Counted from the first letter of the stretch, positions 1 to 26,279 are shown. The stretch is 64,000 nt of DNA from Patescibacteria group bacterium (GCA_041660305.1 JBAZWO010000001.1:113909-177908), one strand, 5' to 3'. Notes: generated by a model from the sequence alone, not told the origin. Made by a program: numbers and translations.

Positions 1-27
1 TTGGGCGGAATGCCCGTGACATCCTTC

Positions 28-732
28 TTACCGGTTGGTTCCCGGAAAAGAAGGAGTTGTCATCATCGCTGCCTGGCCGCCGGTGTTGACATCGCCACCA
101 TTTGCAGTCACTAATGGCTGCTTCATGTGGGTCAGCCCGTACGTGAGCAAACCTGTCGCGATGACCACCCCGGTCGTGATGATTGCGGGCCGGACCCAGG
201 AGCGGTTCCGGCGTGGGGGCTCGTCGGCGGGCAGATCGGCGCCGAGGTCGGGGACGTCGTCGTTCCGGACGGGGGTCTCGGCGAACGTGAATGCCGGCAT
301 GGAGATACCGGTGGAGGATCCGTCAGCACTATGATTATAGTACTTGAACGTTCCACCACTTGCGTTCCCCGATCCGGCCACATCCGCCGCCCTTTGCGCT
401 GCGAGCAGGCTCGCCGTGGCCTCTAGGCACTTTGCCGAGCTGGTCATACCGAGCCCGACGACCTCACCACCTCTCATCAAGGCGGCTTGGAGTGCCTTGT
501 TGGCCTCTTCCTCACTCCGCAAACAGGCGCCCTGCATCTCGAGTACCGTCAAGTCACCCGAGGGAAGGGCTCGTACCCCGCCCGGCATGCTGTAGCCATA
601 GCCAGTGGGGAGGGTCGGGAGAGGCTGAGCGGCCACCGGAGCAGAATTCTGTGCAAAAACAGAGAACTGAACCGCCATCATGATAACGCCCACGATGGCA
701 CAAGCGACGATCAGACTGATCGACTTTTTCAT
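28..732 (-). CDS. hypothetical secreted/membrane-anchored protein (N-terminal signal peptide, C-terminal TM helix), GC-rich
   Basis: 234-aa ORF. N-terminus MKKSISLIVACAIVGVIMMAVQFSVFAQ is signal-peptide-like. There is a C-terminal hydrophobic helix and an AAGGAG ribosome-binding site upstream of the ATG. Local GC is about 62%, against about 35% for the window bulk. Confidence 0.5.
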   Translation of the reverse strand: MKKSISLIVACAIVGVIMMAVQFSVFAQNSAPVAAQPLPTLPTGYGYSMPGGVRALPSGDLTVLEMQGACLRSEEEANKALQAALMRGGEVVGLGMTSSAKCLEATASLLAAQRAADVAGSGNASGGTFKYYNHSADGSSTGISMPAFTFAETPVRNDDVPDLGADLPADEPPRRNRSWVRPAIITTGVVIATGLLTYGLTHMKQPLVTANGGDVNTGGQAAMMTTPSFPGTNR

Positions 733-881
733 AACTCAATCTCCTTGATTTTCTGAAAGCCAGCGACCTCGATGGTCGTGTGATACTTCAGGATGAATAC
801 CTGAGGCCGCTGGCAGATTTTACCGAGAAAAACTGGAATCGGACTGCCCACTTCTACGGTGTGGGCAAAAACCGTGCGGCC

Positions 882-1466
882 TTAGCGCGCCGCAGGTGTC
901 GTCGCCGGAATGCCCGATGCACAGAAACTGTAGTAACCGTTTTGACCGGCCGCTACAAGTCCTGCTGCGAGCTTCTCACACAGAGTGAGCGGCTTGGCTT
1001 TGACCACCACGTGCTTTTTGGGCGGGCGCTTGGTGGTTTCGGCCGGCTTCTCGACTTCTTCGGGGGCGGGGGTAGGCTTGGAACAGTCTGTACCGCAGTT
1101 GACGTTGACCACGGTTGTCCCGGGCGGTACGATGGTCGTCGTTCCAGTAGGAGTCGCAGTGGTGGTCGGAGCGGGCGGCTGGCTGGAGCTGGCTCCCGTC
1201 GCTTCCGGTGCCGGAGTCTCCTCCGGTCCGTAGAGCTTGAGAGCGCTCTCGGCTTCCTGCTTCCAGGAGCTTGCCTTCGCCTCCGCCGCTTTCTTCTCAG
1301 CCAAACGCTCGCGCGCCTGGGCGAGAGGCCCGGTGGGCTCACCGGTTACCTCGGCCGCCGAGGCTGCGCCGTTCTTGTCGAGCCAGCGCCCGGCGTACTT
1401 ACCAAGATTCAACGCACCAAAAACGATGATGATGATGATGAGAATAGCTGTGATTCCGCGAAACAT
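882..1466 (-). CDS. N-terminally anchored Pro/Thr-rich protein (TonB-like topology: TM, Pro/Thr linker, Cys-containing C-terminal domain)
   Basis: The ORF track opens with a TTG; the first ATG gives MFRGITAILIIIIIVFGALNLG (one TM). A PAPEATGASSSQPPAPTTTATPTGTTT linker and a four-Cys C-terminal domain follow. The opposite-strand ORF 780..1550 is Arg-rich nonsense. GC-rich. Confidence 0.45.
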   Translation of the reverse strand: MFRGITAILIIIIIVFGALNLGKYAGRWLDKNGAASAAEVTGEPTGPLAQARERLAEKKAAEAKASSWKQEAESALKLYGPEETPAPEATGASSSQPPAPTTTATPTGTTTIVPPGTTVVNVNCGTDCSKPTPAPEEVEKPAETTKRPPKKHVVVKAKPLTLCEKLAAGLVAAGQNGYYSFCASGIPATTPAAR

Positions 1467-1491
1467 AGTGAACCTCCAAATCTGAACGGTG

Positions 1492-2319
1492 TTAAGCCAG
1501 GAAATACATACCAATTAAGAACGCCGCGATCCCGGCAAGAATCGCAATGATCGCCCACTGCTCGTTGGTCACCGCATCGATTCCGGTTTTAGCCGGAATG
1601 GCGGGCTGAGCGGGCGGGATCTCGATCTTGACGACCGCGGTTGCTGGCTCGGGATCCGGCTTGGCCTTCTTGGCTTCTTCGAGTTGCTTACGCAACTCTG
1701 CCAACTCGGCCTCACGCCGACTTTCCGTTGCCTTACGCGCGATCTCAGCTTCTGTCGCCTTCCGATCCGCTTCCACCTTCTGGAGCCGCTCACGCAGCTC
1801 CTTGGTTTCAGCTTCGGCTTGCTCGCGCGCCGCTTTTTCCTCGGCCAGCTTGCGCTGTGCCTCGGGTTCGGTCTGAACCGGATGCACGGACTCGCGGTCC
1901 TTGCGGAGAACGGAGAACCGGCCGGCAGAGCGGGGAGTCGACTCCTCAGGGGCAGGGGTGGGCTCGGATTTTCCCATCACGCTCTCCCGCACCTTCTTGG
2001 TATCAACGGTCTTGAACAACTCCTCCAGATGGAGGGCGTCACCGTCAATGACCTTGAAGGAAGCGGGAGGTGCGGTAACGGGCGTTTCCGAAGTGAACGT
2101 TGAAATCATTTCGTCCGCCCTTACCTCGGCCTTGCAGCCATAGCTGGTTCGCTTGTTGGCGTGTTCAACCGACAGTTTGCCTTCATCCGTGAAGATGATA
2201 TGGCTTTCCGTACGGTCTGCGTCCAACAGAACGATCAGCAGCACTGCGAACTCGATGGCCGAAGGGGTGTAACCCTCCGGCAGTGCGCGGACGACTTTTC
2301 CGACTGTCAACGAACTCAT
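1492..2319 (-). CDS. tail-anchored coiled-coil protein with N-terminal globular domain
   Basis: ATG at 2317-2319 with GGAGG seven nucleotides upstream (MSSLTVGKVV...). The middle is a charged coiled coil (EAQRKLAEEKAAREQAEAETKELRERLQKVEADRK...). A C-terminal TM helix WAIIAILAGIAAFLIGMYFLA closes the protein. GC-rich. Confidence 0.5.
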   Translation of the reverse strand: MSSLTVGKVVRALPEGYTPSAIEFAVLLIVLLDADRTESHIIFTDEGKLSVEHANKRTSYGCKAEVRADEMISTFTSETPVTAPPASFKVIDGDALHLEELFKTVDTKKVRESVMGKSEPTPAPEESTPRSAGRFSVLRKDRESVHPVQTEPEAQRKLAEEKAAREQAEAETKELRERLQKVEADRKATEAEIARKATESRREAELAELRKQLEEAKKAKPDPEPATAVVKIEIPPAQPAIPAKTGIDAVTNEQWAIIAILAGIAAFLIGMYFLA

Positions 2320-2551
2320 GATAGACCTCCTTTTACTGTAAGAACCTGCCTCCAATCCGCGGATTTGCGGATGGAGGCTACGTTGATTGAACATGTTGCA
2401 CTAAGCTAGTGATATCCTAGAATCTAAGATACCGTTAGCTTAGTACAGACATGCTCTGTAAAAACTTTTTTCATATATTTGCCTATTGTGTGTTGTCAAA
2501 GTACATCCGCCTACGCCCCTTGCGGGACTTCGGCGAGACGCGTCCGATTAT

Positions 2552-2613
2552 CTCCCTCTTCCTCCTCTCCCCCTTCTCCTAAATTAGGAGAAGGGGGTCG
2601 GGGGGTTGAGGTG
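2552..2613. repeat. GC-rich nested-palindromic intergenic repeat (family A copy)
   Basis: cccccttctcct-aaatt-aggagaaggggg hairpin followed by ggggggttgaggtg. Confidence 0.7.
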
Positions 2614-2760
2614 TTTATATCGAACTGTCAGGGATAGATACAAGCATAAGCCTATATCCATCCATCTGACAGCTCAATACAATCCATCCAGCTGCTTGCC
2701 CGCCGTAGTCCTTCGTAGCTTTTAGCGGAGAAGGACGTAGGGGGGACAGCTCGGTACAAG

Positions 2761-2865
2761 CAACCTACCCTACCTCCCGGCCTCCTCCCCTCTAAAGGGA
2801 GGAGGAGAATTTCTCCCCTCCCTCTTTATAGGAGGGAGGGGCCGGGGGTGGAAGGTAGAATGAAA
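2761..2865. repeat. family A repeat copy (two hairpins)
   Basis: cctcctcccctctaaagggaggagg and cccctccctctttataggagggagggg. Confidence 0.7.
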
Positions 2866-2986
2866 AAGGCGCATTCTCGCGATCTACTAGGACGCAATTC
2901 TGACCACCGTTTACATCTATATATATTGTATATAGCTGGGAGCGGCTGCTAAATTGCTAGATCGTATTGAAAATACGCCTTTTTCA

Positions 2987-3032
2987 CTCTTCTCCCTCCC
3001 TTTGCAGGGGAGGGTTGGGGTGGGGTCTGTAA
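2987..3032. repeat. family A repeat fragment
   Basis: ccctccctttgcaggggaggg hairpin plus a G-run. Confidence 0.55.
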
Positions 3033-3228
3033 TTATCGGGTCCTAGACCGATAAAGTTAATTATTGATTTTAAAGAACTAAACACTATAATACTTTTTTA
3101 TGATTCTGTCAATAGCCTGGGAATGGTGGGCTGTGGATATCACAAAAAATACCTAAAAATAGCAATTTTTGACCAACCTAGAAATTTTTGCTATTATCCT
3201 TTTGTCCAACCACAATTAATTATTAATT

Positions 3229-3684
3229 ATGGTTTTTATGCAAGTACAGCCGGTGAATATTAGCCCAACCAATGCCGATTTAATGTTGGCTATCCAACAA
3301 AATAATCGGAAATTAGATCAGCACATTAAAGAATCCGATACTAATCGTATGGAAATTTTATTGGCAATTAACGGTTTTGCTAATTATATGCAAGATAACA
3401 TGGTTACCAAAGAAGAATTTGGCGTAGTAAAACAAGATGTATCAGTGCTCAAACAAGATGTATCGACATTAAAACAAGATGTTAGTGAATTAAAACAGAA
3501 TGTAGCGGTATTAAATAAAAAAGCTAATGATACCGAAATTATTTTAGATGGCATTGCTACCAATGTTCATACCATTCAAACCGATCATTCTTTTGCCATT
3601 GAATGGCTAAAAAGCCATGATAAAAAATTAGACACGCATGAAGCTGACATTAAAAACTTACAGTTTCAATTAGGTTCGATTTGA
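3229..3684 (+). CDS. coiled-coil protein with tandem heptad repeats (KQDVSxL x4)
   Basis: 151 aa with VKQDVSVLKQDVSTLKQDVSELKQNVAVL. Same architecture as the paralogs at 33027 and 35621. Confidence 0.6.
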   Translation: MVFMQVQPVNISPTNADLMLAIQQNNRKLDQHIKESDTNRMEILLAINGFANYMQDNMVTKEEFGVVKQDVSVLKQDVSTLKQDVSELKQNVAVLNKKANDTEIILDGIATNVHTIQTDHSFAIEWLKSHDKKLDTHEADIKNLQFQLGSI

Positions 3685-3936
3685 AATACAGCTAGAATCA
3701 CAGATGGCGCAGATAAAATGCTGATTGCACAGATAAATTCAATTAATTAATTGTATTATCTGTGCTATCAGAAATTAATATCTGTGTAATCTGTGATTCA
3801 AGCATTTTGACCACATTATTCTATATTTGTCAATATATACGAGTGTTAAGACGTAAAAAAACTCGCTAATCACTGGTATAAAGAATCGGAACATAGTTGG
3901 GATGTAGTTTTTTGAAATTATCAATGAGTTTTATTT

Positions 3937-4266
3937 ATGGCTAAAAAAAGAATACTCCCAAAGGCAATAAGCCCATACGTTACAGCGTATTTAACTGTGT
4001 TAAAGGAACAACGTAAATTACCAATTACGGCCGCTTATGTATTTGGTTCGTGGTCAAAAGGCACACAACACGAAGATAGTGATATTGACATGTGTATAAT
4101 TTCACCAAAATTAACCGGCTGGATGAGAAGAGTAGATAAATTATCACCTGTGCCCTACTCTGATTTATTTATTATCGAACCACATGGTTTCACCCCCAAA
4201 GAATTTGACCCAAAAACAGACCCCTTAGCCTACGAGATTGTGAAGTATGGGATTAGGGTGATTTAG
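3937..4266 (+). CDS. minimal nucleotidyltransferase (MNT antitoxin-type), solo
   Basis: GSWSKGTQHEDSDIDMCIIS matches the GS...DxD polymerase-beta nucleotidyltransferase signature. Paralog of 32275..32601. No HEPN partner is adjacent. Confidence 0.75.
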   Translation: MAKKRILPKAISPYVTAYLTVLKEQRKLPITAAYVFGSWSKGTQHEDSDIDMCIISPKLTGWMRRVDKLSPVPYSDLFIIEPHGFTPKEFDPKTDPLAYEIVKYGIRVI

Positions 4267-4280
4267 AATAATAATTCTCA

Positions 4281-4607
4281 GTGATTCAAACATTCAGTAA
4301 AACATGTTACAATATAAGTATGGATAAAGATATGTTAATAAAAACAGTTGTTCAGCTTATTCAGCATGAGCTACCCAATAATTATCGTGTTATATTGTTC
4401 GGTTCCTGGGCAAAAGGTAATGCCCTGCCTGCCTCCGATATGGATTTCGGCATTATTGGTGAACAAGCCTTGCCTTGGGAAAAATATTTATCAATAAAAA
4501 GACAACTAGATAGCATTCCTACGTTGCGCAGTATCGATTTAGTAGATATGAATAGAGTAGATGAACATTTTAAAAAAAATGCCCTGGCATATGCTCAATA
4601 TTTATAA
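4281..4607 (+). CDS. nucleotidyltransferase (MNT, HI0073-like antitoxin)
   Basis: ILFGSWAKGNALPASDMDFGII nucleotidyltransferase motif, directly upstream of a HEPN gene. Confidence 0.75.
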   Translation: MIQTFSKTCYNISMDKDMLIKTVVQLIQHELPNNYRVILFGSWAKGNALPASDMDFGIIGEQALPWEKYLSIKRQLDSIPTLRSIDLVDMNRVDEHFKKNALAYAQYL

Positions 4608-4615
4608 ATAATATT

Positions 4616-4987
4616 ATGCGAGAAATTATTGAATCTTTCGAACAATCCATTAATCGATTAAAAGAAATTTTGCAAGAACAACCAACGATTGCTAATCGTG
4701 ATTCGGCTATTAAGCGTTTTGAATTAACTTGCGAGTTAGCTTGGAAATCATTACAAAAATATTTACGTGAAGAAAAAATTCTTTGTTATTCACCAAAAGA
4801 TTGTTTAAAACAAGCTTTTAAGCTTAATTTAATTCAAGATGATGAACGTTGGTTAAATATGATTGAAGATAGAAATTTATCCGTTCACGTGTATGATGAG
4901 TCTTTTGCCATAGAACTTTATAAGCGTTTACCAAATTACCTGTCTATATTTGAACAGTTATTAAAAACTTTTAAATCGAAATTGTGA
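4616..4987 (+). CDS. HEPN domain protein (HI0074-like nucleotidyltransferase substrate-binding / HEPN toxin)
   Basis: 123 aa, helical, with an R-x4-H-x-Y motif in DRNLSVHVY. Forms an MNT-HEPN pair with 4281..4607. Confidence 0.7.
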   Translation: MREIIESFEQSINRLKEILQEQPTIANRDSAIKRFELTCELAWKSLQKYLREEKILCYSPKDCLKQAFKLNLIQDDERWLNMIEDRNLSVHVYDESFAIELYKRLPNYLSIFEQLLKTFKSKL

Positions 4988-5005
4988 AGTGCGAGATTAA
5001 AGTGT

Positions 5006-5072
5006 TTCAATTATAAAACCCCACTAGACTGTATAGATGCAACTCTGTGCAATCTAGCCTAGTGGGGGTTTA
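5006..5072. terminator. putative bidirectional intrinsic terminator
   Basis: aaaaCCCCACTAG ... CTAGTGGGGgtttattttttt: a 9-bp stem flanked by an A-run and a T-run, just after the HEPN stop. The loop is long at about 31 nt. Confidence 0.45.
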
Positions 5073-5194
5073 TTTTTTTATTATTCCGCTAACCTCATCT
5101 TAAACTTATTGAAAGATAAAGTTACTGGGATATGGCTCAATTCGTCGTGTACAAGTACAGACAAGGCTGAGCCGGAACCTTAGAAAGGAACAAA

Positions 5195-5215
5195 GAGGAT
5201 TTTTTGGAAAAAAGG
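5195..5215. repeat. left terminal inverted repeat of GC-rich island (GAGGATTTTTTGGAAA)
   Basis: Reverse-complement partner at 9029-9048 (TTTCCAAAAAAAATCCTC). GC content jumps between these two sites. Confidence 0.5.
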
Positions 5216-5222
5216 CCGCCGG

Positions 5223-5966
5223 CTACTGGCTGCGGCGCAGACGGATCTCGATCCGTCGCCGCGCCTGGTCATTCCGCTGTTTGGTAGTCCCGGTCGCGAG
5301 AGAACCATCAGGCATCTGGGTCTGACCGGCCGATAGCGGCAACACCTGCAGTTTGCCACCCGTGATACGAGTGTCATTCAGCAGGAACTTGGCCACCGTC
5401 ACGGCTCGGGACAAACCCAGATCAGCGTTCGACCCTAAGGCCACGATCTCGTTGGCTTGTCCACTCAAGAACAGGAGCAAGTCCCGATCGAGAGTGGACA
5501 TCTTTCCGTACATAACCGTTTCGTCGGTATGTCCGACTACTTCGATTATGTCCGTGCCATAGGTCGCGGCCAACGTCAGAATTTGCGGGACGATCTTATC
5601 CCGCAGCTTTGCCTCGAAAGTGGCATCAACGTCCGCAGATCCGGACGTGAACGACCAACCACCCGCTTCGGACAGCGCGATGATGGGAGGCTGATCGTTC
5701 TTGGCCTCGGCCTGAAGCTTCTTCAACTTCTCGGCGTCCATGCCGAGTTTTTTTAGCTCCTCGGCCATGGCGCACACCTGCGCCTCGAGCTTTTTGTTTC
5801 TCTCGACGACCTCCTGTGAGGTCGTTTTTGCCAGGTTCTCCTGCAGCCGGTTGGCGTTGGCTGCAAGGATCATGTTTCCTATCATGGAAAGTGTTAGCAA
5901 AAGCAGAAGCACTTCCCAGCCCATGAGCGACTGGAGAAGTGCAGTGTTTCGTTGGTGTGCTGCCAT
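5223..5966 (-). CDS. MotB/OmpA-like protein (one N-terminal TM, coiled coil, OmpA-type peptidoglycan-binding C-terminal domain)
   Basis: C-terminal domain shows GHTDETVMYG...NADLGLSRAVTVAKFL...RRIEIRLRR, the OmpA_C signature. TM helix WEVLLLLLTLSMIGNMILAA. Its ATG overlaps the upstream stop (TAATG). Confidence 0.75.
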   Translation of the reverse strand: MAAHQRNTALLQSLMGWEVLLLLLTLSMIGNMILAANANRLQENLAKTTSQEVVERNKKLEAQVCAMAEELKKLGMDAEKLKKLQAEAKNDQPPIIALSEAGGWSFTSGSADVDATFEAKLRDKIVPQILTLAATYGTDIIEVVGHTDETVMYGKMSTLDRDLLLFLSGQANEIVALGSNADLGLSRAVTVAKFLLNDTRITGGKLQVLPLSAGQTQMPDGSLATGTTKQRNDQARRRIEIRLRRSQ

Positions 5967-6616
5967 TAATTTTTCCCCCCAGCATTCTGGTCAGGGAAAA
6001 AATCATTCAGATCCACCAACAACTTTCCAATTCCCGCGACCAGTACCCGGAACGCCTCGAGATCACCATTGAGCGCGTCCGAGTTCAGACGAGCTCGAGA
6101 CAACGACGTCCGCAATGCTTCCACCTCGGCCGTCACCGCTCCGATATTGCCGCTCCCGCCACCAACATTGCCCGTGTTACCACCACCACTTGCCGATCCG
6201 CCTCCGGAAAGCCCATCGATATAGTTTAGGGCCACCATACAGGTGAGCCCTATTGCCACCGACATCAGACCCTCCATCAGTGGAGCAACGATCTGACCGA
6301 CGGGCATGTCGGTCAGAGCTTTTGTTTTTACCCCGTCGAACACGATCCCCAAGGAAACTGCAAGAGCAGCAACCAGAGAGATAATGCCAATGGCTTGAAC
6401 CAAGGTAGCCACGGCGGTCAGTTGGACAGGATATTCCGTAGGGTCGTTTCTCAAAAACCACCTAACAGAAGTCACTGTGATAAAGATCATTCCCCCGAAT
6501 GCGGCTATGGGGAAGAGAACCTTCATCACGTTCAGGCTGCCAGAGAACCAGGACACGAGGAGCGCGAGCACAATCGCCACGAGAACTGGCAGCACTCGCC
6601 GAATGAGAAACTTCAT
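5966..6616 (-). CDS. MotA/TolQ/ExbB-like four-TM membrane protein with Gly-rich cytoplasmic tail
   Basis: 216 aa with four predicted TM helices; the last two are spaced like a MotA/ExbB family channel. AGGAGG ribosome-binding site. Tightly coupled to the OmpA-like gene downstream. Confidence 0.5.
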   Translation of the reverse strand: MKFLIRRVLPVLVAIVLALLVSWFSGSLNVMKVLFPIAAFGGMIFITVTSVRWFLRNDPTEYPVQLTAVATLVQAIGIISLVAALAVSLGIVFDGVKTKALTDMPVGQIVAPLMEGLMSVAIGLTCMVALNYIDGLSGGGSASGGGNTGNVGGGSGNIGAVTAEVEALRTSLSRARLNSDALNGDLEAFRVLVAGIGKLLVDLNDFFPDQNAGGKN

Positions 6617-6624
6617 GTCACCTC

Positions 6625-7680
6625 CTACTTTTTGCCATCCGTGAGCAGCTTATTACCGAAATCTTGCGATCCGGAAGACAACTGCCCAGCGTATTTTGCC
6701 ATGTAGTCCTGTACCACCTTTTTTCCGGCCACACCGCCACCCTTGAGGGCGGCCAGAATGGCCATCACGGCCATGTCCCGAACTGCCTCGGACCCGTCCA
6801 AGATTCCGCACTGCCCACCGCCGGCTTTGGCGATGGCCTTGAAGTTCTCGAGCGCGAGAGGGCTACCCTCTTTGCACTCGGAATCCTCGGGATGCGGAAC
6901 GTGGAACGTGTGGATGATGACCTTGCTGTCGCGAAGAGTCTTGGCGACATCGGTCGCGACCCCGTTTGGAACGGGGTATCCTCGCTTCCGATAGTACACC
7001 AGTTCCTCTGCGCTGTGGGCACGGGCATCACCAATTATCAGCACCATGTCCACCACATCCTGCATCTGCACCACTTCGTTCAACCCGTATTCCAGAGCCT
7101 CGGGGTAAGGATATGGATCCTCTCCCCGCTCTCCACCGCCGGCCGCGTAGATACCGCGCAACCACTGCTTGATCTGGCCGGGGTCGTTTCTGAATCCGGA
7201 ACGCTCGATGATCTTGCTGTCACCATAGTCTCGATATGCGATAACCTCGACCTGAAGACGCTCTCCGGCCTGCTCTCTTGCCCGCATGACAATGTCATCC
7301 ATCTGATTCCGGACGCCATTGATGGTGGGTTGTTGAGAACCTGTGGCATCGATGAGGATCACGACCTTGCCCTCTTTCTGGGCCGAGGTCTGCTCTTCCT
7401 TCGCCTGCTGGCCTGCCTGCCGATACCGAGCCATACGATCTTCCTGAGACTCAGACAGCCGACCGACGGCGGTTGACTGAGGCTGCTGCCTGGCCACACC
7501 AGTTACGGTGCTTCCAGGCAGAGCCTTGGGCCCGCTGCCACTGCTGGAGCTCTGCTGGGCACTTCCCGGAGGAAGCGCGCGCTGAGGCTGCTGCTGGCCG
7601 CTGCTGCTTGCTGCTTGCTGCTCGGGGTTCTTTTTTTCTACGTCCTTGTCTCCACCACGAAGCTTGCTAAAAAGTCCCAT
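6625..7680 (-). CDS. von Willebrand factor A (vWA) domain protein with Gln/Ser-rich N-terminal region
   Basis: VVILIDATGSQQ is a MIDAS-like D-x-T-x-S, followed by VEVIAYRDYGDS and MVLIIGDARAH beta-strand motifs typical of the vWA fold. AAGGAG ribosome-binding site. Confidence 0.6.
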   Translation of the reverse strand: MGLFSKLRGGDKDVEKKNPEQQAASSSGQQQPQRALPPGSAQQSSSSGSGPKALPGSTVTGVARQQPQSTAVGRLSESQEDRMARYRQAGQQAKEEQTSAQKEGKVVILIDATGSQQPTINGVRNQMDDIVMRAREQAGERLQVEVIAYRDYGDSKIIERSGFRNDPGQIKQWLRGIYAAGGGERGEDPYPYPEALEYGLNEVVQMQDVVDMVLIIGDARAHSAEELVYYRKRGYPVPNGVATDVAKTLRDSKVIIHTFHVPHPEDSECKEGSPLALENFKAIAKAGGGQCGILDGSEAVRDMAVMAILAALKGGGVAGKKVVQDYMAKYAGQLSSGSQDFGNKLLTDGKK

Positions 7681-7691
7681 CGTTCATCTCC

Positions 7692-8972
7692 TTATTTCTT
7701 CGGTTTTCCCTTATCAAGGGTCGCTCTATGCTTAGCAGCGTCCTTGAACAAACGTTCATGCTCTTCGCGCTCCTTGGGAGGAGCGGAGGTATGTCTGTCC
7801 GGATGGTGCTTGAGAGCCATCTTGCGATACGCCTTTTTGATTGTCTCAGCGCTATGCTCGGTGTCCCGAGCATAGCCGAAGAAATCGCAAGCGTCGCACC
7901 AGGCTTGCCAGTCCTTGTCGAACGTGGAAGCCTGTTTCGGATCTTGCCACTTGCCGCCACCATACTGCGCCTGGATCTGCTTGATAAAGGCGTCAATGTC
8001 GCCCCGTACTTGAGCGAGTGACTCGAGCAGTTCAATTACCTCGTCTAGCGACGAGGCATCGTGCACTGCTTTTTCGAGCCGCTCTTTCTCAACAACGAGA
8101 CCGTCCATCAACGCTTCGTTGGCCTTAACCCAGTCCAAAACCTTCTGCTTGCGCATCAGGTCCGGATTCTGAGCCGGCCAATACTGCAGCATCCAGGCGA
8201 TCTGGCCGCCCAGAACGGAGATGAGAAACTGAAAGTTACCCCATTCCTTCTGGAAATCGACCAGTAGAGACCGTGCTTCATTGGCTTCCTCAAGAGAAAG
8301 CCCTGTGGGGTTCGAACTGAACGGCTTGAGCATCTTGAGAAACTGCTCGAAAGCCGCCAGCTGAATTTTTCCACGGAGCCCCTCCGCCTCGGGCACCACC
8401 GCTAACATGATTCTGGCGGTGTCGAGGAGTGTTTCAGCCTGCTGGTGATTAGCCATGTGCATAGCTGAAATAATTTGGTCACGCGAACCGTCCGACAGCC
8501 TACCCCGAAACTCACCGAGCTCGAGGAGGATGCCGATAACCTGGTTGAGACGTACAAACTCCGCCGGGGACTTGGCGCGTATACGATCCACGTTGATCCC
8601 GTAAGCGGAGCAGAACTCCCGGAATGCCTGAACCGGCCCCGGGTGAGTCGCTAAAAGCTGAAAGTACTCACCCGGTATCCACTCCAGCCCCAGCCGCGCG
8701 AACAGAGCATTTGCAGCTCGTTTTTGCAACCGAGGCAGAGCGGGGTGTGCCGTAGGATCAAAACGAGCGAGTCGCGACCGTTTGGGAACCCCGCCGATGC
8801 CGGATCCCGAAACGCGCTGCACCCGCTGCTTGGCCTGCGGCCCGACAGACTGTGGGGTTGAAGGGTCAGGGACCCCCAACCGCCGTCGAAGCCCAATAGG
8901 CAGACGGTGGCCGAGGGCGAGAAGCACACTCAAGAACCTCTTGAGTAGCTCCTCTAGGGCGGACTTAATCAT
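7692..8972 (-). CDS. large helical protein with C-terminal DnaJ J-domain (HPD motif)
   Basis: C-terminus SAETIKKAYRKMALKHHPDRH is a canonical J-domain. Start chosen at MIKSALEEL, with GGGAGG four nucleotides upstream. The ORF track extends to 9050. Confidence 0.8.
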   Translation of the reverse strand: MIKSALEELLKRFLSVLLALGHRLPIGLRRRLGVPDPSTPQSVGPQAKQRVQRVSGSGIGGVPKRSRLARFDPTAHPALPRLQKRAANALFARLGLEWIPGEYFQLLATHPGPVQAFREFCSAYGINVDRIRAKSPAEFVRLNQVIGILLELGEFRGRLSDGSRDQIISAMHMANHQQAETLLDTARIMLAVVPEAEGLRGKIQLAAFEQFLKMLKPFSSNPTGLSLEEANEARSLLVDFQKEWGNFQFLISVLGGQIAWMLQYWPAQNPDLMRKQKVLDWVKANEALMDGLVVEKERLEKAVHDASSLDEVIELLESLAQVRGDIDAFIKQIQAQYGGGKWQDPKQASTFDKDWQAWCDACDFFGYARDTEHSAETIKKAYRKMALKHHPDRHTSAPPKEREEHERLFKDAAKHRATLDKGKPKK

Positions 8973-9028
8973 CGAACCTCCCTTGTGGCCATTCGTTAGC
9001 CACGTTTTTCGTTTTCTAAAATCAAAAA

Positions 9029-9048
9029 AATTTCCAAAAAAAATCCTC
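9029..9048. repeat. right terminal inverted repeat of GC-rich island
   Basis: TTTCCAAAAAAAATCCTC is the reverse complement of the left repeat at 5195-5212, allowing for T-run length. Confidence 0.5.
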
Positions 9049-9103
9049 AATTTTCAACGATCAAGCCTGTAACAAAGATATTATCCTTGCCAGGCTAATT
9101 TAA

Positions 9104-9204
9104 GCGGAGGATATCTCTTCACCCTAACCCCTGGGTTCCCGCCTGCCTCCTTAGACGGAGTACGGCGGGCAGGTACCCCAGTGGGTTAGAAGAGAGCTCT
9201 GCTT
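9104..9204. repeat. GC-rich nested palindromic repeat (family A variant)
   Basis: ctaacccctgg ... ccagtgggttag outer arms and a cccgcctgcc ... ggcgggcagg inner arm. Confidence 0.55.
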
Positions 9205-9405
9205 AAATCAACCGAGCAAAAAGCACAATACCACCTTATTTTAGGTTATTTATTATAATTTTTGGTAGGTAATGTGGTTCATATAAGAACGAGCCAGAAT
9301 ATCACTTTTTTTTGATTTTGTCAATACCAAATCTGTTTAGCACCATATTATTGTATATTTGTCAATATATACGTGTGTTAGTTAGCTTGTTATAATAACA
9401 ATATT

Positions 9406-9717
9406 ATGAGTACAAAACAGCTGAATGATATTGTAAAAACCATTACTAAAGAAATACAGCCAGAACAAGTGGTGTTGTTTGGTTCACAAGTATGGGGTAC
9501 TCCTCACATAGGTAGCGATATTGATTTATTAGTAGTAGCCAATACTACTGGTAAAATGGAGTATTTACGTAAAATACGCCAAGTTTTATTTGGCCACAAC
9601 TTTCCGCCGATAGATTTAATCACCTATTCAGCCTCGGAAATTAAGCAGCGTATTACTCAAGGCGATAGTTTTTTGGCAGAAATTATGAACAGAGGCAAAA
9701 TAGTTTATGAACGCTAA
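9406..9717 (+). CDS. nucleotidyltransferase (MNT antitoxin)
   Basis: VVLFGSQVWGTPHIGSDIDLLVV. Overlaps the downstream HEPN gene by 11 nt. Confidence 0.75.
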   Translation: MSTKQLNDIVKTITKEIQPEQVVLFGSQVWGTPHIGSDIDLLVVANTTGKMEYLRKIRQVLFGHNFPPIDLITYSASEIKQRITQGDSFLAEIMNRGKIVYER

Positions 9718-10123
9718 TATTTTGCCGATCATTGTTCAAGAATGGCTAGACAAAGCTAATAATGATGAATTAAACGCTCAATCAATTTTAAAACATAAAG
9801 ACGGCACACCAAGTGGTGTTTGTTTTTTGTCGCAACAAATGGCTGAAAAATATTTGAAAGCTTTTTTAATGTTTCATAAAAAACCATTACAAAAAATCCA
9901 TGCGTTAGATCGGTTATTAGAATCTTGCATTGAAATAAATAATGATTTAAGCACACTGAAAGATGATGTAATTTTTTTAACAGATTTCTATATTTCCACA
10001 CGTTACCCAGCTGATATACCGGATTCATCCTGGAATGACGCTGAACATGCTCTAACGGCCGCTAAGCATGTAAAAGATGTAATAATAAAAACATTAGCAT
10101 TATCAGCGTCATCAGAAATTTAA
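9707..10123 (+). CDS. HEPN domain protein (PF05168-like)
   Basis: QQMAEKYLKAFL and a C-terminal ISTRYPAD motif typical of HEPN. Paired with the MNT gene upstream. Confidence 0.7.
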   Translation: MNANILPIIVQEWLDKANNDELNAQSILKHKDGTPSGVCFLSQQMAEKYLKAFLMFHKKPLQKIHALDRLLESCIEINNDLSTLKDDVIFLTDFYISTRYPADIPDSSWNDAEHALTAAKHVKDVIIKTLALSASSEI

Positions 10124-10140
10124 TCTGCGTAATCTGTGAT

Positions 10141-10950
10141 TCAGCGTTTCAAATGATCCTGCATGCTCACTGGCTCATCTGGTTTGCCGTCTACCGCGTT
10201 AAAACGATCTAACACTTTATATTGTGGGGGTTCCACTGGTTCCACGATGGTAGAGACGCCCCGGCGGGGCGTCTCTACCTTGTTGGGCAACGTCTCTACC
10301 TTAGGTGTTTCTACAGGGGATTCCTGTGGGAACGCGATATATCGCGTTCTCTTCGCCTCAAATTTTAACAAATAATACGTATAAGACGCTAACAAGCCTA
10401 GCGCGCCAGCGGCTGCTCCATTGAGTGGTATATTTGGTTTTACTGGTCTATTACTAGTAACCGGCCCTTCAATTTGTTTTATGTATACGCTATCTCCCCC
10501 ACCATAATAATCAGAGGAGTTAGTAGTTAACACCTGCGCAACACCGGTAGCAATGCCTTCCGCGTTAGCAGGATTAGTGCCATAACCAAATATTTTAATA
10601 ATACCGGTTTCTGGCACTACTTCGGCGCTTACCAGTTTTTCCCAAGCACTTTTTTTATCATTCGAATCGATACTAAACTGCTCTGGTTTTACCTGGCCAG
10701 TTTCTAATACTCGATTCAAAAAATCTAGTGAAGTAATTACGTTTACCAAGCTGTTTCCCAAGCTAGCGGCCGCCCGTTGCGCTGTGTAGGAATCTACCGT
10801 AGCGCTTTGCTTTTGCACAATTAGTAAATCTACTTCCGATTTATATAATTGATCGGGAATAAACGATAAACCAACGGCAATAGCCGCGCATACTAACGTG
10901 CTGCATGTTATTACTAGCCAGTGTTCTTTAATCAGAAGTAAATAACGCAT
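10141..10950 (-). CDS. Wzz-like polysaccharide chain-length determinant protein (TM-periplasmic-TM)
   Basis: N-terminal TM plus a C-terminal TM (GAAAGALGLLASYTYYLLK). The C-terminal region carries an in-frame copy of the palindrome GTAGAGACGC...GCGTCTCTAC. Confidence 0.55.
   Translation of the reverse strand: MRYLLLIKEHWLVITCSTLVCAAIAVGLSFIPDQLYKSEVDLLIVQKQSATVDSYTAQRAAASLGNSLVNVITSLDFLNRVLETGQVKPEQFSIDSNDKKSAWEKLVSAEVVPETGIIKIFGYGTNPANAEGIATGVAQVLTTNSSDYYGGGDSVYIKQIEGPVTSNRPVKPNIPLNGAAAGALGLLASYTYYLLKFEAKRTRYIAFPQESPVETPKVETLPNKVETPRRGVSTIVEPVEPPQYKVLDRFNAVDGKPDEPVSMQDHLKR
10250..10323. repeat. family B perfect palindrome (GTAGAGACGC-ccccggcgggg-GCGTCTCTAC) plus two degenerate half-copies, inside CDS
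   Basis: 29-bp perfect palindrome at 10250-10278. Other copies are at 16646-16673 and 29766-29793. Confidence 0.8.
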
Positions 10951-10958
10951 AAATTTAT

Positions 10959-13900
10959 TTAGCCTTGCAATGTAGCATTTAAAATGTCTTTACCATCGAA
11001 TTCAACTTTATGTGGCAACAAACCTCGTTCTAAGGCGTGTTGAATAACACTAAGGGCTTCTTTAGCAGCCGGATCACCAGCCGAAGCATGCTTAGAAATA
11101 TCTTGAGCTACATCTACCCAACGCTGCGCTTGAGCGAGCAAACCTGAATTGCGTTCAAAGCCAAGTGAAAAATGTAAAAGAGGTTCACCATGATGCCCAG
11201 CTATTTCAGCAACCGGATAATGTGGCTTTAACACTCCGGATATTTTATCCATGGCTCTATGCATGCCTTCTGCTACTGCTTCCTTAATCTGGCCAACACT
11301 ATTGGAAGCACTCACATGAATAGGTTCCACCCCAGCTACTTTGGTAGATATATCAATCTGCGCCATTTTTCCTATTACTTCCTCTTTAAAATAAACACCA
11401 TGTTCATAACGTCCTTTACACGTAGAAAAACTATCTTCGACTTGTTTTAATAATTGTTTAGCCTGCCAGATAGTTTCAGCTGGTGCCCGCTGCGCTTTAT
11501 AATCAGCCAACATATCCTGCATTTGTTTTACTTGTTGTTCTTGAGCAATAATATCTTTAATCGCTCCTACTCTCATTTCTGGCGGAACAAACTTGCCTGA
11601 GAGCGGTTCTCCATAATGGCTTAAATCAACATCATTATATTTTAATCCATTATTATATGGCGCAACAATTTTATCCCAATCTGCCGTGCCTGGTTTTACG
11701 GAAATTACTTCTGCTACACCATCATTATTATGCACGTAAAAATATTCTGGCTGGTGGGTAATTGGATTCGTTACTTGGCGTAACGGTTCATCAAATGGTT
11801 CATAATCGGAAGAAACATATAAATCTGTTTCTAAACCTTCCATGCTTGTACCAGGATTAGTACCTACCGCCGGAAAATGATAATCTACACCATGAAAACG
11901 TTCTGGGTGTTGCAACATATCAGTTTGGGTATGTGCCCACTGTTGCTCAGAAGTTAAAGCCTGCTCAATGCCGTGCGGATTCAGATCAGCACGTGCCCCA
12001 GCTGGTTCTACAGAATTACCAGCCCCATGCCCAACCCCGTGTCCGTGCGGCAAATCCACCGCTGGTGCCTGGTCACCGGCCTCAAACGAATAATGCGCCT
12101 GGCCGTCACTGCCTACATTAGCCACCACTTTATCACCTTCATGCGTTAAATTATACCACTGTCCTTTACTTTTTAATTCCTGCATTGCGTTAGCAAATTC
12201 TTTCTTCACCCAAGCCGATTCGCTTATATCGGAACTTTTATCATAACCTAATTCTTTCGCGTTTTGCCGGATTAAATGCAATAATGATCTTGACTCAAAA
12301 TCCTTACCACTTGTGCCGGTAATTTCATCTTCAATTTTTACCATTGGCGCAGTATGATCTGGAGTCAACGTACCAGCTTCTTGCGCTCGAGATAAATCTT
12401 CCCGAACAGCGGCTGCTGCTCGCTGAATTTGCTCGTTAGTAAATGGCCGATCAATAATTTCCTGACGATCCTTAGCCCATTGTTTTTGAAAATTGGATTC
12501 TGTCTGAGCAGTGGCTCGTTGTGCTAACCATTCATTGAGTTCGTGCATGCCAATGGCACCCAAAGCCGCTCCGGCTACACCGCCAGCTACTTTATAGCCT
12601 AATTTAACATGATCAAATTGTTTTTGTTTTTCATAATGCTCTACAATATGATCATTCTGCTGGGTGGCTAACCCTAAGCTCATTCTAGCATCGTTAACTA
12701 ATAATTCTTCTAACCGTTGCGCTTCAGTTTGTAAACGAACATATTCTATTGAACGCTGGCCTTGTTCATTGGTTTGGGCTTTAACATATTTTGGATTATT
12801 TAATTGTTCACGCACTTGCGCTAATTTTAAGCTTAACTCTTTCGGTGAAGTTACCTTATCAATATCATGTAATTCCTTAGCGGTAATAGCGCTGGCATAC
12901 TCTGCGCCCATAACTGCACTAGCCCGTTTTGTACCAACTTTTTCACCTAACATCATGCCCAGCTTACCACCAGCTAGTGCTCCAGTATATACACGTAATC
13001 CAGGTACATAGCGAGTGGCTATACCAACGCCAGCAAATAAAAATGCTTGGATAGATTTTTCTGTAGTTGTATTTTTTCCAACCCCTAACGTAAGTACATT
13101 AGCTACTCGTTTTACCCAGCTATTATCCAGAGCCTTAGCCATTTTACCTGGCTGATTATGTTGCATATCTGCCTCAAATAAATCGTTACCAGCTTCTACT
13201 AAATATAGTTTTTTTACTGCTTCCGCCATTTGTTCAATAGGCTTAATCATTTTTTCCCAGGCATCTTTCTTGTTTTTATCTGTCGGATTGGCATCGTAAT
13301 CATCTCGAATAGCTTCATAATTAGCTATGCCATAACGCTTGGCTAATTGATCCAATGAGCCACGTTCAATTTGGTTGGCTCGTTGTGATATTAAATGATC
13401 TAAACCAGTTTTAAAAGCACCTTTATCTTTATCCTTCGCTGCAACGTATTGTTTAGTAGTATTTTCTATTGAAACTTCTAATGGCACGGTACCGTCACGT
13501 TTGGTTTTAACTTTTTGTTCCACCGCCACGGCAATTCTGGCTAACACATCGTTAACACATTGTTTATATTTATCGCTATCTGTTTTTTCTAATTCAGAAC
13601 GAATACCTTTTTCTTGTTTTACCGCGCCTTTTTTATCACGAAAATGTTCGTGCAAATTAAATACCATTCTGGCAGCCAACGCACCAGCCGCTCCAACTGC
13701 AAACGCTGGCATAGCTACAGCTAAGGTAGTAGCTGCCAAACCAGCCCCAATACCAACACCGGCTATGGTGCCAATTTTTCCGGCCGTCCGCCAAAAGCTT
13801 TTAGGTACCGCTGTCTGCTGATCGGCTCTAGCCTGTTCATACACCTGCTGATCCTGCATTAAAAACATCAGCTGCGCATCTGTTTCTGCCAAGCCAATAT

Positions 13901-15836
13901 GATCGGCTAAATTTTTTAGTTCAGCCGCATCTAATTTTAATACTGTACCTGCTTTACCAGCATCTTTATTAGCTAAAGCACTAATTAATTTTTCTATGTA
14001 TTTTTTTAAATCTCCGCCTTTAGCCAATTCCGCTTCCAAATTTTTCATTACAGCATACTTGTCCTTAGCTTCGTCACGTTTCGCTGTTTCCATGCGCACT
14101 GTATTTAATAATTCTTTAGTATTCGGTTGATCAGTAAATTTTTTGGCGGCACAGCTAGTTTCAATAGCCGCAATAAACCCATCATGAGCCTTTTTAATGT
14201 CGGCCGGATCTTTCACGTCCACTGTAATTTCCGCACCACCTTCCTCTAATTGATAAGTTACTACCGTTTTATCTTTATCAACATGCAATTTAAATACCGC
14301 TGGTTTATCAGCGTATTTTGCTTTCGTAGTTGGATTTACTGTATAATCACGCGTGAGTGTGTAATTTATTTCCGTATCTTTTTTATCTTCTTTTGCTTTA
14401 CCAAGTGCTAAATATTCTGGTATTTCTTTACCAATTACGCCAACGCCTGGCAAATTCCATTCATCAGCAGCTACTGGACTATCTACTAATTTTTTAGCTT
14501 CGGCTTCTAATGCTGCTTTAGCTGCGGCAGTTTCTAATTTGGCTTTTTTTTCAGTACAGAATTTTTCGGTTTCTTTAACAAATTTATCATTAAATATACT
14601 TTGTAATACACCAGCATCATTGGCTTTTAATTTTTGCGCTTTAGCACTATCCGCTACTTTATATTCCACAGCCGCCGGCTTATTTGGTTCAATCACTATT
14701 TTAAAATAAGCGCCCGTAGAACTATAGGCCCTATCTTTGTATGGTTTAGTTAATGTAATGGTTCTAGATTTTCCTGCACTAACACTTTCAGAAATACTAC
14801 CACTATCCAAATAGTCATCTAATGATAACTTTAAACTTTCATTATTAGCTAAATCGATTTGTTCATCATGAGCGTCGGTTAAATATTTTTCTATGGTACT
14901 AGTTAAATCTGCTTCATCTTTTTCTTGTTTAACTTTTTTATCGGCTTCCGTTTTAATAAAGTTAGTTACTTCACTTTGAAAATTTCTATATTCACGTACC
15001 GCGGCTGCTGGATTAGGTGCTGGTTTAGGACCAACGGTTCTGCCACCATATGCTGTATACTCAATAGTTACTCCATGGTCTGTTACTAACATAGTAAATT
15101 CAGCTGGCACAGCACTTAGTGCTGGCGTTCCTTCGTATGGCTGTATATAATTATAAGCTATGCTATCGCCTATAGAAGCCGCTCCACTAAAATCAGAGCG
15201 TGTTAATTCAGCATGACCTAATTCTGGCAAATCCAACGCCGCAAAAGCTTTCCCACCAATTTCCCAATTTACATCTCCGTCTTTAAAATTGGTAACGTAT
15301 CGCTTATCAAGATCTTTTATCTGTTCTGCCGGTATTCCTTTGCGAGCTACTTCTTGAGCATTAACTACACCAACCATTTTAGCTTGATAAATCCGTTCAG
15401 TTTCCTTAGCTAAATCATCCAGCTGTTTTATTAATTGTTCATTATCAATTGTAAAACCTGTTATTAAAGTCATATCAAGAATATCTCTTAAATCAGATTT
15501 GAAACGTTGTTCGGCTCGTTCAATAACCTTTTGTAATTCTACCAAAGCTGCTTTAGCTGTGTCTTTAGCTAATTCTACATTTTCTTTAGCAGTAATTATT
15601 TTGTCTTCCGTGTCAGCGTCTTTCAATTCTTTACTAGCAGCTTTAAATGCATCACGAGCAGCATTTACATCTTTAACCGCTTGTTCCGCGCGCCCAACAA
15701 AACGTTGCCGTTGTTCGGCTGGATTAATAGCATCACCTGCACTCACTGGAGCACTACCAGCAGCTGAATCTGGTTTTGCTTTTTTCTTTTTCTCGTCTTT
15801 TTTATCTTTTTTTAGATCTTTATCGTGTTTGCCCAT
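10959..15836 (-). CDS. giant protein (1625 aa) with internal glycine-zipper TM segments
   Basis: Single uninterrupted ORF. Lys-rich N-terminus and no signal peptide. Three Gly/Ala-rich hydrophobic segments (GTIAGVGIGAGLAATTLAVAMPAFAVGAAGALAA, AFLFAGVGIATRY, VAGGVAGAALGAIGM). A His/Gly-rich region occurs near residue 1190. Confidence 0.6.
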   Translation of the reverse strand: MGKHDKDLKKDKKDEKKKKAKPDSAAGSAPVSAGDAINPAEQRQRFVGRAEQAVKDVNAARDAFKAASKELKDADTEDKIITAKENVELAKDTAKAALVELQKVIERAEQRFKSDLRDILDMTLITGFTIDNEQLIKQLDDLAKETERIYQAKMVGVVNAQEVARKGIPAEQIKDLDKRYVTNFKDGDVNWEIGGKAFAALDLPELGHAELTRSDFSGAASIGDSIAYNYIQPYEGTPALSAVPAEFTMLVTDHGVTIEYTAYGGRTVGPKPAPNPAAAVREYRNFQSEVTNFIKTEADKKVKQEKDEADLTSTIEKYLTDAHDEQIDLANNESLKLSLDDYLDSGSISESVSAGKSRTITLTKPYKDRAYSSTGAYFKIVIEPNKPAAVEYKVADSAKAQKLKANDAGVLQSIFNDKFVKETEKFCTEKKAKLETAAAKAALEAEAKKLVDSPVAADEWNLPGVGVIGKEIPEYLALGKAKEDKKDTEINYTLTRDYTVNPTTKAKYADKPAVFKLHVDKDKTVVTYQLEEGGAEITVDVKDPADIKKAHDGFIAAIETSCAAKKFTDQPNTKELLNTVRMETAKRDEAKDKYAVMKNLEAELAKGGDLKKYIEKLISALANKDAGKAGTVLKLDAAELKNLADHIGLAETDAQLMFLMQDQQVYEQARADQQTAVPKSFWRTAGKIGTIAGVGIGAGLAATTLAVAMPAFAVGAAGALAARMVFNLHEHFRDKKGAVKQEKGIRSELEKTDSDKYKQCVNDVLARIAVAVEQKVKTKRDGTVPLEVSIENTTKQYVAAKDKDKGAFKTGLDHLISQRANQIERGSLDQLAKRYGIANYEAIRDDYDANPTDKNKKDAWEKMIKPIEQMAEAVKKLYLVEAGNDLFEADMQHNQPGKMAKALDNSWVKRVANVLTLGVGKNTTTEKSIQAFLFAGVGIATRYVPGLRVYTGALAGGKLGMMLGEKVGTKRASAVMGAEYASAITAKELHDIDKVTSPKELSLKLAQVREQLNNPKYVKAQTNEQGQRSIEYVRLQTEAQRLEELLVNDARMSLGLATQQNDHIVEHYEKQKQFDHVKLGYKVAGGVAGAALGAIGMHELNEWLAQRATAQTESNFQKQWAKDRQEIIDRPFTNEQIQRAAAAVREDLSRAQEAGTLTPDHTAPMVKIEDEITGTSGKDFESRSLLHLIRQNAKELGYDKSSDISESAWVKKEFANAMQELKSKGQWYNLTHEGDKVVANVGSDGQAHYSFEAGDQAPAVDLPHGHGVGHGAGNSVEPAGARADLNPHGIEQALTSEQQWAHTQTDMLQHPERFHGVDYHFPAVGTNPGTSMEGLETDLYVSSDYEPFDEPLRQVTNPITHQPEYFYVHNNDGVAEVISVKPGTADWDKIVAPYNNGLKYNDVDLSHYGEPLSGKFVPPEMRVGAIKDIIAQEQQVKQMQDMLADYKAQRAPAETIWQAKQLLKQVEDSFSTCKGRYEHGVYFKEEVIGKMAQIDISTKVAGVEPIHVSASNSVGQIKEAVAEGMHRAMDKISGVLKPHYPVAEIAGHHGEPLLHFSLGFERNSGLLAQAQRWVDVAQDISKHASAGDPAAKEALSVIQHALERGLLPHKVEFDGKDILNATLQG

Positions 15837-17250: not shown

Positions 17251-17350
17251 CCCCCTAACCCCCTTCTCCTGCAGGAGAAGGGGGAAAAATTAATTTAACC
17301 TCCCCCTCTTCCCTTTACAGGGGAAGAGGGGGCCGGGGGGTGATGAGGTC
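17244..17350. repeat. family A MITE-like element with terminal inverted repeats GACCTCATC/GATGAGGTC
   Basis: gacctcatcc...cccccttctcctgcaggagaaggggg...cccctcttccctttacaggggaagaggggg...gatgaggtc. Fills the lgt to dsbA-like intergenic gap exactly. Confidence 0.8.
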
Positions 17351-26215: not shown

Positions 26216-26279
26216 GAGTTATACTACTATTATTGAGCGCTCACATTTTTTTAATTGAGCGTTTTTATATTTATTTTTT

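Follow-up and report, generated by a model that had tools for sequence, protein, structure and literature searches.

Genes of the GC-rich block

The window analysed here is a stretch of 64,000 nucleotides (nt) from a Patescibacteria group bacterium (GCA_041660305.1, JBAZWO010000001.1:113909-177908). Its left end lies in a GC-rich block of about 3.7 kb (block 1), the larger part of which occupies window positions 1-2400 and carries three minus-strand genes, here called A, B and C. A second GC-rich block further to the right (block 2) carries a cassette encoding a J-domain protein, a vWA protein, a protein with four transmembrane segments (4-TM protein) and a MotB-like protein. In a first-pass annotation of this DNA, B was taken for a TonB-type energy transducer, C for a loosely TolA-like protein and block 1 for the possible other half of a stator-like system. 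Block 1 is compositionally foreign and horizontally acquired, because the GC content of its genes is 0.59-0.62 against 0.33-0.43 in the host (about 38% as the window mean outside the islands) and its dinucleotide-signature distance to the host, delta*, is 183 against a host baseline of 72-97. For the two blocks delta* to the host spans 183-192. The three genes of block 1 are as follows.

28..732, minus strand: gene A, 234 amino acids (aa); NCBI MFA5994920, labelled 'Patescibacteria group bacterium'
882..1466, minus strand: gene B, 194 aa; NCBI MFA5994921
1492..2319, minus strand: gene C, 275 aa; ATG start behind a Shine-Dalgarno sequence; GC content at third codon positions (GC3) 0.69; JGI call identical

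Coordinates are window positions throughout. Open reading frames (ORFs) were scanned on both strands, and GC and GC3 were determined by gene. A, B and C are confirmed as real genes by their Shine-Dalgarno sites, their GC3 pattern, the outcome of shuffling, concordant gene calls and identical independent contigs. The ribosome-binding sites, described as strong at the outset, are AGGAGG at 2331-2326 for C and GGAGG at 1477-1473 for B, each with a 6-nt spacer, and AAGGAG at 746-741 for A with a spacer of 8 nt. GC3 is 0.69-0.71 in the three genes and 0.25-0.39 in host genes of the same window. The order GC3>GC1>GC2 holds only in the called frames, and overlapping ORFs in alternative frames (a 256-aa antisense ORF among them) lack it. 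Three same-strand ORFs of at least 190 aa arose in 0 of 300 dinucleotide shuffles; single long ORFs were common there, with a mean longest ORF of 180 aa. C and B are separated by 25 nt, and all three genes are free of frameshifts and internal stops. The NCBI (MFA5994920-22) and JGI callers, and others besides, agree with these ORFs. The start of C has an alternative, as its maximal ORF reaches 2394 and corresponds to the 300-aa NCBI version, and the mechanical ORF of B runs on to a TTG at 1514. Five independent contigs (L001-L004 and L093) are 100% identical to the window and span its GC/AT junctions; L093 covers the second island completely, together with C and the AT-rich segment. Contigs from four other samples or assemblies, L001 among them, show this identity, and the organism is carried by the samples ERZ27249449, SRR18595301, SRR6484324 and JGI 3300014208. 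The source contig of the metagenome-assembled genome (MAG) measures 491,640 bp and holds a protein identical to A. An assembly chimera was considered as the cause of the GC/AT mosaic and was rejected, as the independent contigs cross the junctions.

It had been suggested that the contig be extended leftwards beyond position 1. On contig L001 the GC-rich block indeed runs about 1.25 kb further and contains hairpin repeats of the host type and a fourth gene, present in NCBI only as 86-aa fragments at contig ends.

L001 1729-2481, plus strand: gene 4, 250 aa; lipoprotein-like signal, Cys-rich; match to PF11617 ('MopE' putative metal-binding motif), E 7.7e-12

The architecture of the three proteins was derived from hydropathy and, for B and C, from single-sequence AlphaFold2 (AF2) models. 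The mean predicted local distance difference test (pLDDT) score is 56 for both models, which are confident in helices only. In A, a hydrophobic, signal-peptide-like N-terminus (1-29, ending VFA and followed by Q) and a second hydrophobic segment (183-201) with a 33-aa tail behind it bear out the original description of a secreted protein with a C-terminal anchor. Two of the three Cys residues of A lie in its Ala/Gly-rich middle. B starts with a transmembrane (TM) helix at about 3-26 by hydropathy (helix 3-33 in the AF2 model, pLDDT 82-86). A further helix (47-78) leads to a disordered spacer rich in Pro and Thr, behind which a small C-terminal end contains four Cys. Its 194 aa include 20 Pro and 22 Thr, concentrated at about 80-150, and disorder is predicted at 80-86, 91-115 and 133-159. 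The TM helix, the Pro/Thr spacer and the Cys residues proposed for B are therefore all present. The supposed C-terminal domain shrinks to about 25 residues, modelled at low confidence as a helix of 12 residues (161-172) and a strand of 6 residues (177-182). C contains a long helix (151-219, pLDDT >90) behind a low-confidence N-terminal region, as well as a Pro-rich linker, and its sole TM segment is a C-terminal tail anchor at about 252-275. The coiled-coil, tail-anchored nature of C thus stands and its likeness to TolA does not, the anchor being at the opposite end.

Relatives of the three proteins were sought widely. A and C each found only themselves among 5.8e9 clustered proteins. An exhaustive phmmer search of 1.84e9 representatives with A returned A and one compositional match, P0123, which is an Ig-like repeat protein and was rejected as a relative. 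These two large protein searches covered A and C; B found only itself in a pattern-seeded scan of metagenome contigs, which detects close relatives only. At 90% identity the cluster of B is a singleton, and all clusters of A, B and C are singletons or consist of the protein and its alternative start. The 2.9 million viral contigs contained no relatives of A, B or C. Searches of PDB sequences with A, B and the N-terminal portion of C were negative. The family libraries Pfam, NCBIfam, PADLOC and PHROGs yielded coiled-coil or low-complexity noise alone, PADLOC being without a match for any of the three. Among the matches are a borderline one of A to phrog_11275 (E 7.5e-4) and a faint match of the C tail to a holin family (E 0.076). 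On these searches A, B and C are orphan, lineage-restricted proteins.

The neighbouring cassette and its probable link to block 1

The four genes of the cassette in block 2 are also on the minus strand.

7692..8972, minus strand: J-domain protein, 426 aa; C-terminal J-domain with HPD motif; Pfam DnaJ E 1.5e-7, above the curated cut-off
6625..7680, minus strand: vWA protein, cytosolic, no TM segment; Pfam VWA_4 E 5.6e-6, 26.5 bits against a 27-bit cut-off
5966..6616, minus strand: 4-TM protein ('MotA'); Gly-rich linker, helical C-terminal tail
5223..5966, minus strand: MotB-like protein; N-terminal TM helix, DQPPII linker, OmpA-like GHTDE...RRRIEIR

The first-pass annotation called this region a MotA/MotB island. 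The MotB-like protein is present. In 25 homologues its Gly16 and Glu18, at the cytoplasmic end of the TM helix, are at least 90% conserved, and the GHTDE, N..LG..RA and RRRIEIR motifs are invariant. Profile scores are low, with Pfam OmpA at 22.4 bits against a 27.2-bit cut-off and NCBIfam MotB (E 2.2e-8) far below cut-off. The 'MotA' of that name is less secure, since neither a MotA_ExbB Pfam match nor a PDB match was found with the seven members of the 4-TM family that were searched. The family is marked by an invariant P-x-x-E-G-L in the last TM helix and by a helical tail that varies in length. An hhalign comparison with E. coli TolQ aligns this motif to PGIAEAL at an insignificant probability of 0.4%. 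PADLOC finds weak ZorA similarity in some members (best E 8.6e-4) and ZorB similarity at E 3e-4 to 4e-3. Like the 5:2 stators MotAB, ExbBD and ZorAB, the pair consists of a 4-TM protein and a translationally coupled protein with an N-terminal TM helix; the second protein shares the conserved acidic residue and would share an OmpA-like peptidoglycan-binding domain, which is putative here, and the variable helical tail of the first is reminiscent of ZorA. It differs in that the acidic residue is Glu and not the canonical Asp of MotB-type stators, in the missing MotA_ExbB match and in the level of its ZorA and ZorB matches (E about 1e-3 only). Its partners are vWA and J-domain proteins rather than FliG, TonB or ZorC-G, none of the last of which accompanies the 4-TM/MotB-like pair. 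From these sequence features a distant Mot/Exb/Zor-type unit is a plausible assignment for the pair. The literature yielded no described system that matches a cassette of vWA, J-domain and MotAB/Zor-like proteins.

The cassette is widespread. Relatives of the MotB-like protein were found at 315 loci in GTDB representatives, and the best 80 of the 315 are mostly from Alphaproteobacteria, with some from Bryobacterales and five from genomes of the candidate phyla radiation (CPR). The J-domain gene is conserved at four loci (L076, L024, L015 and L008) and the vWA gene at five (L015, L076, L024, L010 and L028). The full order J-domain/vWA/4-TM/MotB-like occurs in two Uhrbacteria and one Saccharibacteria genome and is partial elsewhere. 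At all five other CPR loci (L005, L007, L015, L024 and L076) the GC content of the cassette, or of its 4-TM/MotB-like core, exceeds that of the flanks. It had been proposed that homologues of A, B and C be sought beside MotA/MotB-like genes in related genomes; by tblastn, no relative of A, B, C or gene 4 lies within 7 kb of the cassette in 87 loci. Downstream of the cassette no ORFs resembling A-C were seen in L076 and L015 (ORFs read) or in L008-L011 (gene tables). Where flanks were inspected, the genes adjoining the cassette differ from locus to locus. The cassette is an autonomous mobile module elsewhere, of which A-C are not a conserved part, because it recurs without relatives of A, B, C or gene 4 in these 87 loci. 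At one of the patescibacterial loci a GC-rich gene upstream of the 4-TM/MotB-like pair (L005 6129-6878, plus strand) encodes a 249-aa protein with Cys-rich repeats (CQRS..C..GRC). It is unrelated to A-C and is again orphan-like Cys-rich cargo.

Several features connect the two blocks. The delta* between block 1 and block 2 is 43.8, within the range found inside one genome. Against 59 unrelated GC-rich genomes block 1 gave 106±33 with a minimum of 54.7, none reaching 43.8 or less, and between opposite ends of one foreign locus the distance is 74±27. Each block is also preceded by a promoter-like element.

3084..3114, minus strand: P1, a promoter-like element with TTGACA-17-TATAGT, upstream of block 1 in its AT-rich flank; 23-mer at 3092-3114
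9296..9326, minus strand: P2, a promoter-like element with TTGACA-17-TATTCT (TG-extended), before the cassette on its upstream side; 23-mer at 9304-9326

The two 23-mers, TATTGACAGAATCATAAAAAAGT and TATTGACAAAATCAAAAAAAAGT, are identical at 21 of 23 positions and include an A-rich spacer; the similarity runs on through the -10 region and a downstream GTTCTT. At up to three mismatches the 23-mer has only these two copies in the 64 kb, where 0.01 are expected. The twin elements could reflect co-regulation or a repeated border of toxin-antitoxin modules. A recent toxin-antitoxin duplication is an unlikely source of their likeness, because the MNT nucleotidyltransferases nearby are only 31-38% identical, although they share a 39-nt element. 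This element (3810-3848 and 9342-9380, 92% identical) lies directly upstream of the two otherwise divergent MNT genes and may be an operator or promoter that the toxin-antitoxin modules have in common.

In a Baikal Uhrbacteria MAG an AT-rich gene for a PIN-domain-like toxin (L015 5544-5918, minus strand) separates the vWA gene of the cassette from its 4-TM gene; AT-rich toxin-antitoxin insertions can therefore split such islands. With this precedent, the delta* of 43.8 and the twin 23-mers, blocks 1 and 2 are plausibly of one origin, and the earlier suggestion that they were once contiguous is reasonable.

Weighing the readings of block 1

The account that we favour, with modest confidence, takes block 1 for envelope cargo, a set of orphan membrane-anchored proteins on a horizontally acquired island, and not for TonB/TolA transducers. 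Block 1 and the Mot/Zor-like cassette would have entered together, out of a single GC-rich source, and AT-rich toxin-antitoxin insertions would later have parted the two. A, B, C and the Cys-rich lipoprotein-like product of gene 4 would all be tethered to the cytoplasmic membrane: C by its tail, with a cytoplasmic coiled coil; B by its N-terminus, with the Pro/Thr-rich stalk reaching into the wall zone and a tiny four-Cys knob at the tip; and A as a secreted protein held by its C-terminal anchor. In these positions A, B and C may have structural, adhesive or exclusion functions, exposed at the wall or the cell surface. Genomic islands are common in aquifer Patescibacteria (PMC12455944). The island seen here resembles the genomic and defence islands of that group (PMC12455944) in its deviant composition, its hypothetical and membrane proteins, its toxin-antitoxin modules and its groundwater-type CPR genome, and differs from them in being a mosaic of GC-rich blocks and AT-rich toxin-antitoxin segments whose borders lack integrase, tRNA and direct repeats. 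Several points weigh against this account. Marks of mobility are missing, as the window contains no tRNA, positions 1-10200 and contig L001 contain no integrase or transposase, and direct repeats at the island borders do not exceed chance. The role at the surface, in adhesion or in exclusion has been guessed solely from the architecture of the proteins and their gene neighbourhood. Expression of A, B and C is putative, and the recovered copies are identical, so that dN/dS is not estimable. For B and A the positive-inside rule gives no clear answer, which makes their extracytoplasmic orientation a matter of deduction. A small novel fold may exist in B or C outside the confident helices of the low-confidence models, and the shared promoter-like element fits true co-regulation with the cassette equally well, in which case it would speak for a functional connection.

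The proposal that B is a TonB-type transducer and C a TolA-like protein, which with A would form the envelope-spanning half of a Mot-powered machine, is not supported and seems very unlikely to us; it fails every testable defining feature except gross topology. B does have the gross layout of TonB (PF03544), with a single N-terminal TM helix, an extended Pro-rich spacer and a short C-terminal part, and the two blocks share strand, compositional signature and the promoter-like element. Stator-coupled transducers with C-terminal domains unrelated to TonB (vWA) have also been described, so that dissimilarity alone is not decisive (PMC12204202). However, the TM helix of B, GITAILIIIIIVFGALNLG (MFRGITAILIIIIIVFGALNLGKY), contains neither the Ser nor the His of SHLS, the motor-binding motif that the same work defines for the TonB TM helix (PMC12204202). 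The C-terminal part of B had been proposed for comparison with TonB_C and TolA_C, and neither turned up in Pfam searches at E≤10, in the PDB or in BLASTP comparisons; the last 79 aa match no Pfam family at that threshold and no PDB entry. With E. coli TonB, B gives no BLASTP match, and with TolA only a compositional match of 39 residues. TonB_C is a globular C-terminal domain that binds its target by beta-strand addition. It measures about 80-90 aa, against about 25 ordered residues predicted in B. Adjoining B there is no ExbB/ExbD. The nearest candidate pair lies at a distance of 3.7 kb, beyond four genes on the opposite strand, and the interval between the blocks also contains separate promoter-like sites. 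C shares Ala/Lys/Glu-rich helical stretches with TolA domain II, as does B, and its coiled coil draws the NCBIfam tolA_full model at E 0.002, with 17.5 bits against a cut-off of 59.45 bits. Its polarity is the reverse of that of TolA, which is anchored N-terminally, whereas in C the N-terminal part would be cytoplasmic and the C-terminus anchored. Pfam finds no TolA_C in C, and BLASTP of C against E. coli TolA finds nothing. The neighbours are orphan and toxin-antitoxin genes and not a tolQ-tolR-tolA-tolB-pal operon. Patescibacteria (CPR bacteria) are not known to possess an outer membrane, and their envelope is Gram-positive-like; a Ton/Tol-type target would be missing, as there would be no outer membrane to pull on. 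The cassette itself also speaks against a joint Tol/Ton-like machine with the stator, since none of its 87 loci, the complete four-gene copies in three CPR genomes among them, encodes a relative of A, B or C. A looser version, in which blocks 1 and 2 form one co-regulated mobile envelope apparatus with A-C and the lipoprotein as output or sensor modules coupled to a 5:2 stator, strikes us as highly improbable, although the common promoter-like element and compositional signature are compatible with it. The same slim chance attaches to its further claim that their TM helices couple to the Mot/Zor-like stator signalling to the cytosolic vWA and J-domain proteins.

It is unlikely, if less so, that the three proteins are membrane proteins of a mobile element or prophage that serve in phage exclusion, abortive infection or lysis (holin- or spanin-like) as cargo of a defence island. 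Toxin-antitoxin pairs crowd the interval from mfd to wzz, which also includes the weakly Zorya-like ZorA/ZorB-type pair. B resembles an inner-membrane spanin of the Rz/Rz1 type in its N-terminal anchor, helix and Cys, with the Cys-rich lipoprotein-like gene 4 downstream of it, left of the window, and the phrog_11275 match of A and the holin-family match of the C tail point the same way. These family matches are at noise level, however. There are no phage structural, integrase or lysis-enzyme genes nearby, and neither the viral contigs nor PADLOC offered a relative. B has no PHROG match, and spanins require an outer membrane, which the host presumably lacks. We consider it quite unlikely that the ORFs are non-functional, whether as decaying foreign remnants or as chance ORFs in stop-poor GC-rich DNA. 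Such a view is favoured by the missing homologues, by the extent of low complexity and disorder with low AF2 confidence, and by the ease with which GC-rich DNA yields long ORFs, as the shuffle mean and the antisense ORF show. It is opposed by three proper and properly spaced Shine-Dalgarno sites, a codon-position pattern confined to the called frames, hydrophobic anchors exactly at the termini, the close spacing of C and B, the shuffle result and the intact frames.

Orphan membrane-protein cargo in an acquired island is an ordinary category already documented in Patescibacteria, and the value of the result is mainly corrective, in that an unsupported TonB/TolA annotation is removed from an organism presumably without an outer membrane. 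The cassette is conserved, autonomous and widespread, stands out as an island of high GC content in at least six genomes of the CPR and is a candidate for an uncharacterised stator-based, possibly Zorya-like, system. The promoter-like element shared by the two GC-rich operons gives a testable handle on co-regulation. If the orphans did couple to the stator, they would constitute the first stator-driven envelope device in CPR bacteria, a machine of a new type that acts across the wall or senses phage.

Intervening segment, flanks and assemblies

The remaining features around block 1 are listed here.

875..894, minus strand: terminator-like GC hairpin with T-run, overlapping the stop codon of gene B (consensus scan)
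2400..3020, no strand assigned: leader or spacer upstream of C, about 50% GC, with hairpins at 2555-2611, 2775-2848 and 2994-3014
3229..4987, plus strand: AT-rich intervening segment (about 32% GC) with four genes
3229..3684, plus strand: coiled-coil protein, with a 43%-identical paralogue left of the window (L001 4518-4871, plus strand)
3937..4266 and 4281..4607, plus strand: two nucleotidyltransferases
4616..4987, plus strand: NTase-substrate-binding/HEPN-like protein

Terminator-like sites in total equal the shuffle expectation, so that the hairpin at 875..894 is weak evidence. Between mfd and wzz, GC-rich blocks alternate with AT-rich toxin-antitoxin segments, and toxin-antitoxin genes (MNT/HEPN, RelE/YafQ-type) flank each GC-rich block. 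On L001, beyond gene 4, there are AT-rich RelE/YafQ-type toxin-antitoxin genes, the coiled-coil paralogue and mfd; to the right of block 2 follow an MNT/HEPN pair and then Wzz-like, Lgt, DsbA-like and metabolic genes. Both coiled-coil proteins have VKQDVSxLKQ heptad-like repeats, and each lies in an AT-rich toxin-antitoxin segment flanking a GC-rich block. They have weak PHROG matches to coiled coils of phage minor head and tail-fibre proteins.

The hairpins of the leader were at one point considered island-specific. This was rejected, as the same pairs occur in many host intergenic spacers. They belong to a genome-wide family of polypyrimidine/polypurine hairpins (CCCCCTCTCTCCT-loop-AGGAGAGAGGGGG) in same-strand intergenic spacers, usually in pairs about 50 nt apart, whose purine arm holds a Shine-Dalgarno-like AGGAG. 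Rfam gave only sub-threshold microRNA-hairpin matches, and no family, for the hairpins at 2555-3014. An 18-nt inverted repeat (2697-2714 and 9154-9171) was set aside, being at chance level by our estimate. Further copies of the hairpin are found at these positions.

17259-17332, 18179-18258, 19609-19688, 21105-21184 and 24031-24110: hairpin copies
26194-26216, 26592-26618, 38407-38474 and 61009-61037, and L001 1530-1556: hairpin copies

The assemblies differ at one point within gene B. L001, L003 and L004 end at 1230/1231 and L093 restarts at 1339, while L002 and the source MAG read through. The missing 107 nt (1232-1338) are the GC-richest part of the gene (0.67-0.73) and contain no repeat. 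The break is likely a coverage dropout, strain variation being the alternative. Elsewhere in the window, a 1625-aa ORF of host-like composition (10959-15836, minus strand), without a Pfam match at E≤0.001, adjoins the Wzz-like gene. At 57048-57962 on the minus strand, a 304-aa ORF with no Pfam match is locally elevated in GC (0.52 against about 0.38) and is possibly a foreign insertion.

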